Sequence record: MZ501089
DNA length: 64,000 nt
From: Escherichia phage KarlGJung
Reading direction: 5' to 3' (one strand)
Both the position numbers and the translations under genes were made by a program. Positions 1 through 61,695 of the stretch are shown here, piece after piece (position 1 is the stretch's first letter; the number at the start of each line of letters is the position of its first letter). Under the pieces are notes generated by a model. That model made no database searches, was not told where the DNA came from, and worked only from the letters and a program-made list of their open reading frames with translations.

Positions 1-349
1 CACCGCATTCAAGGTCTCGCATCATCACCCGACGCAAAACTTCAACATCATCTTTTTTACCGTCAGTAATATATCCAGTTAATTCCTCAATTGCCGCATT
101 TCCAGTCAATTTCCGAGTAGCTAACGTGAATTCAATGAAGTCGAGCATATCTGTAAGAGTCAACATTCCAAAACTCTGGGTAGCAATACCAGGTTTAGGC
201 CATTTCTTGATATAATACTGTAACCCACGAGAATAAGTCAGACGATATACTCGTTTAAGCAATTCATTATCTTTATTCTTTTCAAGAATTGCTTGCTTCT
301 GCTTAGTTGAACCAATAGATGCTATTTCGTTCAGAATTTTAAGAATCAT
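1..349 (-). CDS. 30: DNA ligase, N-terminal part (gene runs off the window start)
   Basis: Minus-strand ORF starting at ATG 347-349 and continuing past position 1; my translation begins MILKILNEIASIGSTKQKQAILEKNKDNELLKRVY..., which matches the T4 DNA ligase N-terminus as I recall it. Not in the ORF track because truncated. Confidence 0.8.
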   Translation of the reverse strand, partial: MILKILNEIASIGSTKQKQAILEKNKDNELLKRVYRLTYSRGLQYYIKKWPKPGIATQSFGMLTLTDMLDFIEFTLATRKLTGNAAIEELTGYITDGKKDDVEVLRRVMMRDLECG

Positions 350-615
350 TGTTCATCCTTTAGAGTTTGGTTTACAGCTCTATTATAAATCAATTCATCA
401 TTAAGCTCAGTCAAAGACCTGTGGTACGTGGTTCTAACTTTATTTCCTTGCATCCAGTGCTTGACGTAAATGAAACCTTGCTCTACACATTTTTTAAAAA
501 TTCGTTCGTCTTTTTGAGCTCGGAATTCTGGATTGCATCTAAAAAATTGATTTACGTGACCGTAATCACGTGTAGTATTACCTTCATTTTCATAAATAGT
601 GTGAACGACAAACAT
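346..615 (-). CDS. hypothetical protein (89 aa)
   Basis: ORF track; ATG start; stop overlaps the ligase start. Sits where the T4 30.x small genes lie. Confidence 0.45.
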   Translation of the reverse strand: MFVVHTIYENEGNTTRDYGHVNQFFRCNPEFRAQKDERIFKKCVEQGFIYVKHWMQGNKVRTTYHRSLTELNDELIYNRAVNQTLKDEQ

Positions 616-1451
616 TAGAATGCTCCTTGGAAAATATTATCACCACTAGTAGGTCTATTATACAAATACTCTATGCCACCAGGTTTAATATAGTTCCATG
701 TCTGAAACGGATGTGTCTGATATGGATGATATGGATTATAAGGATTAAATCCAGGAGTTCTCCAGGTAGTGTTCCAACGAAAAGAATCATTTTTAATCAT
801 CTTTTCAATTACATCTTTTATAGCTTTTTCACTATCAAAACTTTCTTTATTTTCCTTTGGTGAAAAAAGCTTATTCTCTACATCGTTCCATGTATAAACT
901 CGCTGAGCGGTTTTTGGAATACTGTCACGTTCCCCTCGAGCCATCCAATACACAGGAACACGTAATATTTCACTCGCATGATCGCAGTGGTGAGCGAGAT
1001 CGTCAATATAACAAATTACGTTATATTTCTCTTTTGCCTTTTTGAACAACTCTTCTTTTGAAGAATCATGACCACACATCATTACTTCTGAGAAGGCACC
1101 AGGAAAAAGAGCATTCAAATTAAATTGACGATTCAGCAGAGCGTCAATAGAATCACCCAATGCTGTAACAGCTACAAAATTATAATCTTCTTTTAATTTG
1201 TTAATTACACACAGGGCATCTTTATATGGAGACAAGTAACGAATAAAATCTGAACGATTGTATTTTTCAATTAGCTTAACGCCAAGCTCTTCATCGCAAT
1301 TAAATAGTTTACCTGGAGAGATAAATTTCTCATCTTGGATCATTTTTAAAATATGTTCCAACGGAAGATTATATTTCTGAGCAAAATAAGGAAGACCTGA
1401 TTGCCAGCTTAAACATACTCCATCAATATCAGTTAAAATAGTAGGCTTCAT
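615..1451 (-). CDS. HAD-like hydrolase-fold protein (278 aa)
   Basis: ORF track; N-terminal DIDGV motif typical of HAD phosphatases; ATGA overlap with the upstream gene. Confidence 0.5.
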   Translation of the reverse strand: MKPTILTDIDGVCLSWQSGLPYFAQKYNLPLEHILKMIQDEKFISPGKLFNCDEELGVKLIEKYNRSDFIRYLSPYKDALCVINKLKEDYNFVAVTALGDSIDALLNRQFNLNALFPGAFSEVMMCGHDSSKEELFKKAKEKYNVICYIDDLAHHCDHASEILRVPVYWMARGERDSIPKTAQRVYTWNDVENKLFSPKENKESFDSEKAIKDVIEKMIKNDSFRWNTTWRTPGFNPYNPYHPYQTHPFQTWNYIKPGGIEYLYNRPTSGDNIFQGAF

Positions 1452-1906
1452 AGAGAGTCTCTTAATAGGTTTAACACATCAATAAATTCAGCTTCGGTTA
1501 GTATTGTATCATCTTTTGTTAGACCACTAGCCATGCTGTGCTTCAAAACTTTTCCTTTCGAGGCTTGTAATGCATCACGAAAGCCCTTGTTTTGGATCGC
1601 TGCTTCAAAATATGCATTTGTGTATAATTCTTTCCACGCCGGGGAGTATCTTGAAAACGGAACTCCAAGCCAGAAGAGGGTCCCACGGTCCTGAGCTCTA
1701 GCATAAGACCTTCCAGCTTGTTGGGCGGCAAGCCCGGATAACCCAAATATACGACGTTGTTGTTCAACATTTTTCACCTTACACCCTTGGAGGAATCCTT
1801 CAAGACCTCCAAATTGAATACCATCCATAACGAAAGGCCATTGGGCGAAATTACTTAATGCACATGATGGCCACCTAAAATTACTTCTAATCTCTAACTC
1901 AGACAT
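1448..1906 (-). CDS. NADAR (YbiA-like) domain protein
   Basis: ORF track frame, start trimmed to first ATG (track start is TTG). N-terminal segment LSNFAQWPFVMDGIQF resembles the FSNFAAWPIKVDGKTW signature of E. coli YbiA as I recall it. Confidence 0.5.
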   Translation of the reverse strand: MSELEIRSNFRWPSCALSNFAQWPFVMDGIQFGGLEGFLQGCKVKNVEQQRRIFGLSGLAAQQAGRSYARAQDRGTLFWLGVPFSRYSPAWKELYTNAYFEAAIQNKGFRDALQASKGKVLKHSMASGLTKDDTILTEAEFIDVLNLLRDSL

Positions 1907-2105
1907 TTTCAATGCTTATAATTTCAACATCAGCCCAATGACCATAGCAAGGAAGACGAAATTCAACTGGCCAGTTAGGGTCCTTTTCTAATATAATAGA
2001 CTTAACTTGTGGTTCTTCGTGTTCATCAGTATACGGATTTTTATCTGTTACTTTATATGTGACCTTAATGTACTGAATTCCAAAAATCTTATTAATTATA
2101 TTCAT
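1899..2105 (-). CDS. hypothetical protein (68 aa)
   Basis: ORF track; ATG start; tightly packed in a minus-strand operon. Confidence 0.4.
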   Translation of the reverse strand: MNIINKIFGIQYIKVTYKVTDKNPYTDEHEEPQVKSIILEKDPNWPVEFRLPCYGHWADVEIISIENV

Positions 2106-2299
2106 ACTAATTCCTTTAATCCGTAGATAGGAGATAATTCATCACCCATACGAAGGTCTTCATTTCCATCTACCCAGGAAACAATATAAGCCTCTTTTAT
2201 TTGAATACCACTCCATTTAAATGGAGGTAGAACCTTAGAAATTAATCCAGGTATACCAACTCCCTTTAATTCAACGGTTTGACCTAAAAAGAATTTCAT
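2102..2299 (-). CDS. hypothetical protein (65 aa)
   Basis: ORF track; ATG start; ATGA overlap with the upstream gene. Confidence 0.4.
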   Translation of the reverse strand: MKFFLGQTVELKGVGIPGLISKVLPPFKWSGIQIKEAYIVSWVDGNEDLRMGDELSPIYGLKELV

Positions 2300-2586
2300 T
2301 AAAACCTCATCTGAAAACCATGCGATTTAACGTTACCACCGCCAATATCAGAAATATTAATTTCACGCGCAATTGAAGGGTCAATGTCAATTTCACGATT
2401 GAGTTTAGTGATAGCTAAAGTATCGCGCCCATTTACAGTACGGAACTCTAAAGGACAAACCACATCAACGTAGTTTTTAATCGATTCACTAGTAGGCTGC
2501 AAATGAGCAGGAAGGTCTTTAGGCGCCTTTGAGAAAACCACTTCACAGAAATTTTTGCGGGTATCAAAATAAGTAGTCATAAACAT
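2299..2586 (-). CDS. hypothetical protein (95 aa)
   Basis: ORF track; ATG start preceded by GAGG and an upstream UUCG hairpin. Confidence 0.45.
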   Translation of the reverse strand: MFMTTYFDTRKNFCEVVFSKAPKDLPAHLQPTSESIKNYVDVVCPLEFRTVNGRDTLAITKLNREIDIDPSIAREINISDIGGGNVKSHGFQMRF

Positions 2587-2605
2587 AATATTTTCCTCAG
2601 TAAGG

Positions 2606-2622
2606 GGCCGAAGCCCCTCATT
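2606..2622 (-). other. intercistronic UUCG-tetraloop hairpin just 5' of a ribosome-binding site
   Basis: Minus-sense GAGGGGC-UUCG-GCCCCUU, then GAGG Shine-Dalgarno and ATG at 2586. Confidence 0.5.
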
Positions 2623-2628
2623 TTATTT

Positions 2629-2994
2629 TTAAATATCAAATTCGTTAAGAACTACATCAAAGATTGCTTCCAAGTGCTCAGGTTTAGCTTTGTTACTCAG
2701 AATATGACGAATCCAAGTTTTAACTAAGAGTTTACGATTAGCACCATTCCAGCAAGGATGAGTCCCTAAATCGCGTTGGCGGAAATCATCATCCAGAGCG
2801 ATTTTGAAGTTGGAACCTTTCATCGTGATTGAAACCGTGATACCGTTTTCAAATCGCATATAAACGTAGTTAGGAGTCATATACTGTTCAATTTCGCATA
2901 CTGATCCGTTTTGATGTTTCCAGAGGCAAATAGTATCAATAGAACCTGCAATACCATTAGAAACATATTTACGTTCAAAGTTGATGTAGTTCAT
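2629..2994 (-). CDS. hypothetical protein (about 121 aa)
   Basis: ORF track frame; trimmed to ATG (MNYINF...) with GGAG Shine-Dalgarno; track start is TTG. Confidence 0.45.
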   Translation of the reverse strand: MNYINFERKYVSNGIAGSIDTICLWKHQNGSVCEIEQYMTPNYVYMRFENGITVSITMKGSNFKIALDDDFRQRDLGTHPCWNGANRKLLVKTWIRHILSNKAKPEHLEAIFDVVLNEFDI

Positions 2995-3061
2995 TTTATT
3001 CTCCAAGATGTTTAATTGCGGTACAGGTATATAATATCATATCCTGTACCAAAGTAAACAA

Positions 3062-3394
3062 TTATTTTACTACTTTCCAATGCTGCATGTCAAGTTTACC
3101 AACTTTTTTCATCTTCTCAATTAAGCGTTCTGCACGTTGGCGAGCTGTAACATAATGCCATTCGCCTAATTCATTTTGTTCAATTTTTCCAACGATTACT
3201 GTATTCAATTCATAAATCCAACCAGTAAAGAAATTATGAACTTGAATTGTAAAGGTGAAATCTGTTCCCATACCTTCTGTTGTTTCTACTTCAATAATAT
3301 CACCTTCAACTGCCATTAAGAACCACATAGTTTCATTATATTTACCATTGAAGCATTTAGTTTTAACTGCAGCGTTCAGATTAATCGTTTTCAT
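3062..3394 (-). CDS. hypothetical protein (110 aa)
   Basis: ORF track; ATG start with AAGGAG Shine-Dalgarno; early-type promoter directly upstream. Confidence 0.5.
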   Translation of the reverse strand: MKTINLNAAVKTKCFNGKYNETMWFLMAVEGDIIEVETTEGMGTDFTFTIQVHNFFTGWIYELNTVIVGKIEQNELGEWHYVTARQRAERLIEKMKKVGKLDMQHWKVVK

Positions 3395-3418
3395 TTTATT
3401 CTCCTTTGTTTGTGTAAG

Positions 3419-3452
3419 ATAATACTATCACAAAGGAACTATACTGTAAACA
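3419..3452 (-). promoter_or_regulatory. early (sigma-70-type) promoter
   Basis: Minus-sense GTTTAC, 18-nt spacer, TAGTAT(TAT); about 25 nt upstream of the ATG at 3394. Confidence 0.55.
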
Positions 3453-3470
3453 ACTTTATGCAATCTTTGG

Positions 3471-3499
3471 AAAATAAAAAAGGACTCCCGAAGGAGTCC
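3471..3499 (-). terminator. Rho-independent terminator (UUCG hairpin plus U-run)
   Basis: Minus-sense GGACUCC-UUCG-GGAGUCC followed by UUUUUUAUUUU. Confidence 0.65.
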
Positions 3500-3504
3500 T
3501 CAAC

Positions 3505-3681
3505 TTATGCTTTCTGCTTACCAAAACGAGAAGCATCATCTCGAAGAACCGCACGTGCTCGGCGCATGATCTTCTCAACAGTTTGATTGATACGAGAGTT
3601 CGACCCACGCTTGTAACCAGCGCGTTTAGAATCACCAACTTTCTTTTCAACTGCTTTCTTTGCTTTAACTTGTTTTGCCAT
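3505..3681 (-). CDS. small basic protein (about 58 aa)
   Basis: ORF track frame trimmed to MAKQVKAKKAVEKK...; lysine/arginine-rich; followed by a UUCG terminator hairpin. Start choice uncertain. Confidence 0.4.
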   Translation of the reverse strand: MAKQVKAKKAVEKKVGDSKRAGYKRGSNSRINQTVEKIMRRARAVLRDDASRFGKQKA

Positions 3682-3970
3682 TATAAATTCTCTTTTAAAT
3701 GAAAATGCAGGACTTATTGGCATTGCCTGCGCAAGCCCTCAAAGGGGTACTTAGGTTTTGAATATTTACCGACAGGATAACCATAAACCTCGTCATCATA
3801 CCACCAAGACTTACACAGATAACACTTTTCTGACGCATGATAGTAACATTCAAGAGGTACACCATAAAACTGCCGGGGTCTTAAAACTATAATGATTCGC
3901 AAATCATTAATCAGACAGTTCGATGGCTCCTCGATTTTAGCTCACACTAAGGCAGTGAATCTCCAATAAA

Positions 3971-4219
3971 TTACTTCAATGTTACCACAAAGTGACGAAC
4001 TGCTTTTCGTGCAGCAGAAGCCAGAGGCTTAGCATACTTAAGTTCATCTTTTTCCTGAAGCTCAGCAGCTAATGCAGTTTGAGCAGGATTCAGATGTTTG
4101 AAATAACGCAGGATTTCAAGAGCTTCGGCTTCAACATCAATAGATGCGCCATAGTTTTCGTGACCATTATTCCATGCGTTTCGTTGCAGTTCAAGAGCGT
4201 GTTGTAATTGTTTAATCAT
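3971..4219 (-). CDS. rIII: rIII lysis-inhibition accessory protein (82 aa)
   Basis: 82-aa ORF immediately upstream of gene 31, matching T4 rIII size and position; ATG start. Confidence 0.6.
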   Translation of the reverse strand: MIKQLQHALELQRNAWNNGHENYGASIDVEAEALEILRYFKHLNPAQTALAAELQEKDELKYAKPLASAARKAVRHFVVTLK

Positions 4220-4345
4220 TTAAAAATTCTCGTTAGAGATTAAAACTCGGTAGTCACGTTCTTCTGAATTTCATCTTCTTTCGACAGATCTCTCAGTTGT
4301 AGACTACCACATAGAATTGAAACTCAATTCATATTATTATTTATA

Positions 4346-4681
4346 TCACTTATAAAGACACGGAATAGCTTTATAGTGACAAGTAACGAATTTTTGTTTA
4401 ATTTCTTTTGGCTGCTTAAGACCCAGAGCTACAAAAGGATGCGGAACATTTCGAATTTGACCAACTGGAAGAGAAGTCAAATCGCCAACTTCGCAGAAAC
4501 CTTCAGGAACATCAGGACCAACAGAGTGAACTACACACAGTTCAGGAACTTCACCTTGAACACGTTTACCGATAATAAGTCCTGATTCTGTAACTTCTTC
4601 ATCACCGGCTTGTGCAGGTTCAGAAACTAAAATAACATATTCACCGACAGCACGAATTGGTAGCTGTTGTACTTCAGACAT
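4346..4681 (-). CDS. 31: gp31 co-chaperonin (GroES-like)
   Basis: 111-aa ORF starting [30 protein letters not shown]..., matching T4 gp31 in length and sequence as I recall it. Confidence 0.88.
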
Positions 4682-54546: not shown

Positions 54547-55149
54547 TTATAGATTAAATCCTTCAAAATCAAGAGTATAGATAGTGTATGTTGAATACTT
54601 TTTATACTCGTATCTATCCGCAATTCTAAATACACTTCCAGCTGGTATCATTACTTCTTGTTCATCTGAAACTAATTCCATATTACGATAGCGATGGCTA
54701 TCCGGAAACTTAAAACTCGGACTATATTCTTTACAACGTAGAGCTTTTATAGCATACTCCTGGAAATTGAATACCATAGGAGCTTTGAATTCAAAAATAA
54801 CTTGTGTGTTATACTCTAAACCGGAAGCAAAATGTAGAGCTATATTTTTATCATATGAAGCTGATACGACTTTATCAAATGTAATAATATCAATTCCTTG
54901 ATTTAATACTTGCTTAGTCTCAGCTGGAACACCTCTCCAAAGAGGTTTATCGTTTGGTTCCAAACGAGATTTGATTATTTCATTTAACCAAGTATGGTCA
55001 TCTGGTTTATTAGTAATACAATGAATTAAAAGTTCAATTTCAGATAAATTAAACCCTTCAGAAAGTAATTCTTCACGAATAGAAGCACGCACCGATGCAT
55101 CCATTGATTTGATTTTAAAATCTTTTAATTGCATTGCTGAATATTTCAT
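54547..55149 (-). CDS. modA: ADP-ribosyltransferase ModA
   Basis: 200 aa; ART-like elements (LWRGVP arginine, ...EQEVMIPAG glutamate); adjacent paralog ModB. Confidence 0.8.
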   Translation of the reverse strand: MKYSAMQLKDFKIKSMDASVRASIREELLSEGFNLSEIELLIHCITNKPDDHTWLNEIIKSRLEPNDKPLWRGVPAETKQVLNQGIDIITFDKVVSASYDKNIALHFASGLEYNTQVIFEFKAPMVFNFQEYAIKALRCKEYSPSFKFPDSHRYRNMELVSDEQEVMIPAGSVFRIADRYEYKKYSTYTIYTLDFEGFNL

Positions 55150-55769
55150 TCAACTACCTCAATATCATACACTTTAAATGTTCCAAATGAATCGTGTAAT
55201 TTTTCTTTTGAAATAGAAGTTATTCTATACTTTCCAATTGGAATCATCCATTCTTGTTCACGCACAATCATCATTAAGTTATCAGTACGCTCTGAATCTA
55301 ATCCATCAGTATCTTCATATGTATACTTAAATTCAGTATTAGGAGAAGAAAGTATAATATCGCTGATATGGTCAGAATAATTAAAAGCTTTATCAGTTTT
55401 TAAGCGAAATATTATTTCAGTGAAATACTCAACATAAGAAAAACCACATGCTGTGTGCAAACTAGTAGTAAATGAATCTACTCTGTTCGTTGAAAACACT
55501 TCTCCGACTTGTAAATCTTTAATGAGTTCTTTTGTCGATTTTGATATACCACGATATAGCTGATAAGGCGATTTAGTTAAATGCTTTTTAACGATTTTAT
55601 TCAACTGCCGATGAAGAGCTTCATTCTTTTTGGCTTCCATACACTGCCAAAGAACTGACTGTTCAAAGTCAGTAAATTTTTCACAGACCTTTTTGTACAT
55701 ATCATATTGAAAATCAACACTTTCAGCTTTTATAGATAACTGTTCAACATCTGCGAGATTAATAATCAT
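55146..55769 (-). CDS. modB: ADP-ribosyltransferase ModB
   Basis: 207 aa from the ATG with GGAGG Shine-Dalgarno (MIINLADVEQ...); ART-like elements (LYRGIS, ...EQEWMIPIG). Confidence 0.8.
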   Translation of the reverse strand: MIINLADVEQLSIKAESVDFQYDMYKKVCEKFTDFEQSVLWQCMEAKKNEALHRQLNKIVKKHLTKSPYQLYRGISKSTKELIKDLQVGEVFSTNRVDSFTTSLHTACGFSYVEYFTEIIFRLKTDKAFNYSDHISDIILSSPNTEFKYTYEDTDGLDSERTDNLMMIVREQEWMIPIGKYRITSISKEKLHDSFGTFKVYDIEVVE

Positions 55770-55791
55770 GATAGCCTCCATATACTTCAGA

Positions 55792-61338: not shown

Positions 61339-61695
61339 TTAACCTCTATTCATAAAAGCATTAAAAATTTGGTCATCAATAGATGGTGCAGTAATATTTT
61401 CTGCATCATTTAGCAAATCATTAATTTCATCAGATAGCATAACACATGTACCTTTATTTCCTGTAATTGTTACTGCGCAATTACGAACGTTTTCTTTATT
61501 AAATTTTAGGTTAATATTTTCGTAATGAAAATCCTTTAATGCCGAATATATCTTTAAAATGAAATTGTCTTTTACTACAATAAACCCAACCTCACTATTA
61601 AAACGTGGTTCATGGAAACTGTAATAAACCTTTTCATCTATAAAATCGTATGAAATTTTTTCCATTTTTAAATATGAAAATTCAGAACTATACAT
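61339..61695 (-). CDS. hypothetical protein (118 aa)
   Basis: ORF track; ATG start. Confidence 0.45.
   Translation of the reverse strand: MYSSEFSYLKMEKISYDFIDEKVYYSFHEPRFNSEVGFIVVKDNFILKIYSALKDFHYENINLKFNKENVRNCAVTITGNKGTCVMLSDEINDLLNDAENITAPSIDDQIFNAFMNRG

Follow-up and report, generated by a model that had tools for sequence, protein, structure and literature searches.

A NADAR-fold protein of Escherichia phage KarlGJung is the ortholog of T4 AdfN, a published counter to DarTG1

An open reading frame near the beginning of the Escherichia phage KarlGJung sequence almost certainly encodes AdfN (anti-DarT factor NADAR, gp30.3 in phage T4), a minimal stand-alone N-glycosidase of the NADAR fold that counters DarTG1. 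Publications from 2023 to 2026 already describe this gene, with the fold, the enzymology and the role against host defence of its product. Within the window, that is, the whole stretch of 64,000 nucleotides that was analysed (sequence record MZ501089), the gene is full length and syntenic with its T4 ortholog, and its product has the same fold and the conserved catalytic residues. The enzymatic activity and the anti-DarTG1 phenotype should hold in KarlGJung too, by analogy with published experiments on the T4 protein, which is 99% identical. A sequence-only reading of this DNA had presented the gene as the best candidate for an under-characterised anti-defense function; that description no longer applies, as gp30.3 has been characterised experimentally in print under the name AdfN.

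The adfN coding sequence (T4 gene 30.3; 1448–1906, minus strand; 459 nt, 152 amino acids plus stop) runs from an ATG at 1906 to a TGA at 1450–1448 and is predicted to specify a stand-alone, NADAR-core ADP-ribosylglycohydrolase. The sequence-only reading had located this frame and its N-terminal motif correctly, leaving the strand unstated. An in-frame TTG lies upstream at 1912, and the listing of open reading frames stretches the gene to that codon; the ATG is the start used in the T4 annotation and in all close relatives. Upstream lies gene 30.4 (1899–2105, minus strand; 68 amino acids), which matches PHROG 2042, a family of unknown function, and whose stop shares 8 nt with the start of adfN. 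Downstream lies gene 30.2 (615–1451, minus strand; 278 amino acids), whose ATG shares an ATGA overlap with the adfN stop. These overlaps at both ends of adfN are the ordinary tight packing of T4-style genomes.

The gene order of the region is that of T4: cd, 31.2, 31.1, 31, rIII, 30.9 through 30.4, 30.3, 30.2, 30.1 and 30 (ligase). The first 4 kb of the window share 99.5% identity with Escherichia phage TadeuszReichstein (BASEL Bas43, with bas43_ locus tags), and at least 80% of this segment is covered by each of about 477 Tequatrovirus records. In the later part, identity to other T4-like phages is about 96%, which makes the window a mosaic Tequatrovirus. Scans of positions 1–4400 returned 19 promoter-like sites (14.3 ± 4.0 in shuffled sequence) and 4 terminator-like sites (2.7 in shuffled sequence), no excess over the shuffled background, and none of them specific to 30.3.

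The open reading frame is orthologous to gene 30.3 of phage T4. The two proteins have the same length and are identical at 151 of 152 positions, the sole change being I125M; at the nucleotide level, three synonymous changes accompany the altered codon. Residue 125 is a non-conserved position among homologs, and the substitution is conservative. The KarlGJung protein is likewise identical to its Bas43 counterpart at 151 of 152 residues, and it is 100% identical to a protein of phage teqskov. More widely, we collected 104 homologs from a set of 5.8 billion proteins and found tblastn matches in 1,510 phage records, and the family occurs almost exclusively in T4-like and other large phages. Several of the database homologs are truncated or fused fragments (P0007, P0013 and P0017 among them), and several carry the JGI name ‘YbiA (DUF1768 family)’.

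Placing this protein in the NADAR superfamily required comparisons of profiles and structures. A Pfam scan assigned it to PF08010 (Phage_30_3) with 235.3 bits against a gathering cut-off of 36 (E=2.2e-70), covering model positions 1–138 of 138. A direct hmmscan for the NADAR family PF08719 gave no match at E<=1, an NCBIfam scan gave no match, the PHROG match was to PHROG 652 (‘unknown function’), and a single-sequence phmmer search of the PDB returned nothing but a spurious ATP pyrophosphatase match (E=0.6). The missing PF08719 match reflects the fact that Pfam keeps the phage branch as a separate model, with homology still present. For the more sensitive comparisons we used an alignment of 59 full-length homologs, drawn from the 104 collected and reaching down to 35% identity. 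Eight of these 59 sequences individually match PF08719 as well (best E=1.5e-7). Searching the PDB with the alignment profile gave E. coli YbiA (2b3w) as the top match, over the signature block (E=0.01), and in hhalign the same profile aligned with the MG1655 YbiA sequence over 91 columns, at 94% probability and E=1.3e-7. The AlphaFold2 model derived from the alignment had a mean pLDDT of 93.1 and a pTM of 0.88. The only significant matches of this model in the fold search were the three solved NADAR structures, which ranked first in Foldseek (YbiA, E=2.9e-5 and TM 0.70).

Together, the profile and structure comparisons overturn the initial negatives from the Pfam NADAR model, NCBIfam and phmmer, and membership of the 30.3 protein in the NADAR superfamily, with the YbiA fold, is solid. 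The NADAR/YbiA-like assignment made from the bare sequence was thus borne out by the profile-profile alignment to YbiA, the cross-matches of homologs to PF08719 and the fold search. Of the checks proposed with it, the domain search was negative when taken literally, as the direct PF08719 scan found only the sister family PF08010; the profile and structure comparisons were unambiguous. The sequence-only reading had also named two outcomes that would speak against it, namely a lack of any significant NADAR domain hit and a lack of effect on DarT toxicity. Taken literally, both would have misfired, because PF08719 yields no match, and because the T4 protein leaves DarT1 toxicity in uninfected cells unrelieved yet restores phage plating.

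The NADAR signature block can be read directly from the sequence (1778–1858, minus strand; residues 17–43, LSNFAQWPFVMDGIQFGGLEGFLQGCK). The segment quoted in the sequence-only reading is found exactly, as A16-LSNFAQWPFVMDGIQFGGLEGF-L39, in which the quoted letters are residues 17–38, and it is followed by QGCK43; the motif is far beyond chance. The block aligns to FSNFAAWPIKVDGKTWPTSEHYFQAQK of YbiA and contains two catalytic residues, E36 (codon 1801–1799, minus strand, GAA) and K43 (codon 1780–1778, minus strand, AAG), which align with YbiA E48 and K55. Positions P13, A16, L17, S18, N19, F20, F25, E36, G37, F38, Q40, Q50, G58, A61, G65, A112, H123, T134, L136, T137, F141 and R149 do not vary among the 59 homologs, and at least 90% of these sequences keep K43.

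A further residue, H123 (codon 1538–1540, minus strand, CAC), marks the phage NADAR subfamily. It belongs to the last β-strand, which the AlphaFold2 model places at residues 120–123. The hhalign alignment stops at K122 opposite YbiA V124; one position further, H123 meets YbiA E125. This agrees with published reports that phage NADARs have a His in place of the last-strand Glu of the YbiA type or Asp of the DarG1 type (PMC11125620; PMC11543638; PMC12945103). The C-terminal α-helix (1454–1495, minus strand; residues 138–151) is modeled with high confidence and is intact. This is the element lost from the inactive RB69 allele, in which the final 15 residues are cut off by a frameshift at gene position 411, leaving the phage sensitive to DarTG1 (PMC11257639).

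The function of the T4 protein is known from genetics and biochemistry. NADARs were found to hydrolyse guanine-ADP-ribose and to act as DarT1 antitoxins, and a phage subfamily with the His was noted (Schuller et al., Mol Cell 2023, PMC11543638). Phage crosses then traced the DarTG1 resistance of T-even phages to gene 30.3, which received the new name adfN (Johannesman et al., bioRxiv 2024, PMC11257639; Nat Commun 2025, PMC11825919). AdfN is both necessary and sufficient for this resistance: on DarTG1 cells, ectopic expression of T4 AdfN brings RB69 plating back by about 5 logs, and deletion of adfN from T4 and T2 costs about 4 logs (PMC11257639; PMC11825919). Rescue is abolished by the E36A and K43A substitutions in T4 AdfN (PMC11257639). 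Purified AdfN strips ADP-ribose from DarT1-modified DNA, and a two-hybrid assay detected no binding between AdfN and DarT1 (PMC11257639; PMC11825919). AdfN does not counter DarTG2 (PMC11257639; PMC11825919). The sequence-only reading had proposed that a phage NADAR could oppose DarT-type systems by removing ADP-ribose from guanine; on the published T4 experiments, this is right for DarTG1 and does not extend to DarTG2, which acts on thymidine.

Independent work points the same way. In vitro, the T4 NADAR hydrolyses G-ADPr, and in vivo its antitoxin activity was absent (Toxins 2024, PMC11125620). The methods of that study list the construct as ‘gp30.3; residues 1-208’, a misfit with the 152-residue gp30.3 (PMC11125620). 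T4 gp61.2 (AdfA) has 208 residues, and the entry is probably a tabulation slip. The AdfN protein was purified independently in the Nat Commun study (PMC11825919). The T4 enzyme removes G-ADPr and leaves C-ADPr in place, and NADARs from every family, that of phages among them, are reported to remove G-ADPr from RNA in vitro (Toxins 2026, PMC12945103). Taken together, the in vitro studies cover G-ADPr hydrolysis on both DNA and RNA. In a HIDEN-SEQ transposon screen, insertions in 30.3/adfN were lost specifically on DarTG1 hosts; the gene was dispensable on E. coli K-12 without DarTG1, and the macrodomain protein Tk.4/AdfM emerged as the counterpart for DarTG2 (preprint 10.1101/2025.11.20.689424). 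Finally, the BASEL Tevenvirinae Bas35–Bas47 were reported as fully resistant to DarTG1 (PMC11257639; PMC11825919), and Bas43, the closest sequenced relative of the window, belongs to this set.

Because E36, K43, H123 and the C-terminal helix are intact, the I125M change is conservative and Bas43 is among the resistant phages, we assign the KarlGJung gene as adfN with high confidence. By the mechanism proposed for T4, the DarT1 toxin of DarTG1 would ADP-ribosylate guanine bases of the infecting T-even DNA and block its replication. AdfN, expressed from the cluster of early genes that separates rIII from the DNA ligase gene, would hydrolyse the guanine-ADP-ribose bond, releasing ADP-ribose and making the template replicable again. 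Its active site would combine H123, on the last strand, with E36 and K43, both carried by the helix after the LSNF...DG hairpin. In this scheme the target is the modified nucleic acid and not the toxin, the protein would serve as an orphan mimic of the DarG1 antitoxin, and thymidine ADP-ribosylation by DarTG2 would not be countered.

Comparison with known systems sharpens this picture. KarlGJung and T4 AdfN (PF08010) have in common E36/K43/H123, the neighbors 30.4 and 30.2, the start and stop overlaps and an internal 30.3’ frame. DarG1, the antitoxin of DarTG1 (represented by the Geobacter lovleyi NADAR 8bat and the E. coli C7 NADAR), is encoded next to darT, whereas adfN is an orphan: no darT1 was found beside it, and the neighboring 30.4 and 30.2 have no ART domain. 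AdfN also lacks the N-terminal extension of DarG1, with 152 residues against 219 in 8bat and a signature block that begins at residue 17, and it has His 123 where DarG1 has a catalytic last-strand Asp. In uninfected cells, T4 AdfN is no substitute for DarG1 (PMC11257639; PMC11125620). The 30.3 protein is only 15–21% identical to E. coli YbiA (2b3w) and the eukaryotic and bacterial stand-alone NADARs (Phytophthora NADAR, 8bau), the group covered by PF08719. The catalytic E43 of the Phytophthora enzyme corresponds to T4 AdfN E36, on the helix after the SNF...DG hairpin. YbiA-type NADARs have a last-strand Glu in contrast to the His of AdfN, and cytidine-ADPr is removed by YbiA-type and general NADARs and not by the T4 enzyme (PMC12945103).

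Several other phage proteins serve the same purpose of DarTG evasion, namely AdfA (T4 gp61.2), AdfB (ICP1), AdfM (T4 Tk.4), NADAR-Bas32 and NADAR-Bas60. AdfM and the two Bas NADARs are enzymatic erasers like AdfN (PMC11257639; 10.1101/2025.11.20.689424), whereas AdfA and AdfB act without catalysis, by binding the toxin. AdfM differs from AdfN in being a macrodomain aimed at thymidine modification by DarTG2, and NADAR-Bas32 and NADAR-Bas60 differ in belonging to other NADAR clades and in being active in uninfected cells.

It is conceivable, though we consider it improbable, that AdfN does more than erase DarT1 marks, for instance by removing ADP-ribose from guanine in RNA or by countering other, undiscovered defences that use guanine-targeting ADP-ribosyltransferases. 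A related reading, in which the main or additional role of AdfN lies elsewhere (on soluble ADP-ribose derivatives such as host immune signals, on RNA ADP-ribosylation or on the marks left by the phage's own ADP-ribosyltransferases Alt, ModA and ModB) and the anti-DarTG1 effect is one facet, seems to us unlikely. A comparative-genomics survey argued for a possible preference of phage NADARs for low-molecular-weight ADPr derivatives and pointed to ART co-expression in T4-like phages (Iyer et al. 2022, PMC9503650). The in vitro activity of the phage family on RNA (PMC12945103) speaks for the same idea, and the authors of the AdfN work themselves raised other ADP-ribosylating defences as possible targets (PMC11825919). 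Both modA and modB lie within the window (54547–55149 and 55146–55781, minus strand; 97% and 96% identical to their T4 counterparts), and alt lies just past the ligase gene in relatives, so that the window holds ADP-ribose writers and an eraser together. Against this, in vivo substrates other than DarT1 marks are unsupported, adfN is not needed on K-12 hosts that lack DarTG1 (10.1101/2025.11.20.689424), and Alt, ModA and ModB are annotated as protein-targeting, with a linkage unlike guanine-N2.

It is far less probable that the 30.3 protein is a housekeeping N-glycosidase of the YbiA type, acting on reactive intermediates of the riboflavin pathway or other small metabolites, with no part in counter-defence. 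In favor of this reading, E. coli YbiA has an N-glycosidase annotation, and it scores among the best matches to the 30.3 protein in both structure and profile comparisons. However, the last-strand Glu that defines YbiA is a His in 59 of 59 homologs, the family is nearly restricted to T4-like and other large phages, and T4 gp30.3 has a DarTG1-specific phenotype and de-ADP-ribosylates DNA (PMC11257639; 10.1101/2025.11.20.689424). We rejected the housekeeping reading on this substitution, this distribution and the T4 genetics. Natural inactive alleles do exist, in the RB69 frameshift (PMC11257639) and in the truncated or fused database homologs, but an inactive allele of this kind in the window is equally remote and was rejected, as the gene encodes all 152 residues with its catalytic residues and C-terminal helix present and I125M as the only difference from active T4 AdfN.

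For AdfN as a DarTG1 counter, the in vivo mechanism is only partly understood, because T4 AdfN fails to relieve DarT1 toxicity in uninfected cells and rescues non-T-even phages only weakly (PMC11257639; PMC11825919). To account for this dependence on T-even infection, the authors invoked either a T-even factor, the cause named in the published version, or a substrate preference (PMC11825919; PMC11125620). The dependence may reflect a phage partner. The adjacent gene 30.2 has an N-terminal HAD-superfamily motif I (TDIDGV; DIDGV), belongs to PHROG 420 and weakly matches a polynucleotide kinase PHROG (E=0.003); a Pfam scan of its product found no family. We considered a conserved 30.2–30.3 module as a candidate for the T-even factor. 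In one metagenomic contig with T4 synteny, 30.3 is followed by a 30.2 homolog (64% identity). In two distant phage contexts, the genes downstream of the 30.3 homolog are unrelated to 30.2, and on this very small sample the module gains no support.

T4 encodes a full-length AdfA (61.2), whereas KarlGJung apparently does not. The corresponding slot between 61.1 and sp holds a 118-residue protein (61339–61695, minus strand) that is only 34% identical to the C-terminal half (~100 residues) of the 208-residue T4 AdfA and has a Cys aligned to the T4 AdfA His that is presumed to be functionally critical. Roughly 330 phage records match the short form and 487 match the 208-residue form. Given this short, divergent variant, AdfN is probably the only known anti-DarT1 factor in KarlGJung, as in T2. 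If AdfN is indeed the sole anti-DarT1 layer, KarlGJung would be a clean background for finding a partner or extra substrates.

Within adfN, the +1 frame contains a second ORF of 75 codons, 30.3’ (1543–1770, minus strand), which the T4 annotation lists as an internal translation product. Its length exceeds that of 99.4% of codon shuffles. The frame is open in PSD2001 (80% nucleotide identity) and in two metagenomic homologs, whereas MHG19, Phi1 and L004 have it closed. Of the four differences between the window and T4, two are synonymous in 30.3 and non-synonymous in 30.3’. In this tiny sample of relatives there was no sign of purifying selection on 30.3’, and the frame is not conserved across the family; the comparison would lean, if anything, against strong selection on it. 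More speculatively, the overlapping frame might encode a functional peptide.

In the records that we inspected, among more than 1,500 carrying the gene, the 30.3 product is almost always labeled ‘hypothetical protein’. As PF08719 and NCBIfam are also silent on it, transfer of the name AdfN, DNA guanine ADP-ribosylglycohydrolase, is warranted. The NADAR signature is recognisable from bare sequence where the standard Pfam NADAR model fails.

Two kinds of genomic surroundings were seen around distant homologs. In the contigs L004 (7115–7879, minus strand), L005 and L006, NUDIX and Thg1-like genes lie within about 3–4 kb of a 39%-identical 30.3 homolog, and this could be an ADP-ribose-processing neighborhood; these contigs resemble large-phage genomes, and one of them is 308 kb long. 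In L007, an 82-kb metagenomic contig that is apparently phage-derived, the 30.3 homolog matches both PF08010 and PF08719, and a small GGDEF-domain protein of 165 residues is encoded about 1.7 kb upstream of it (1819–2316, plus strand).
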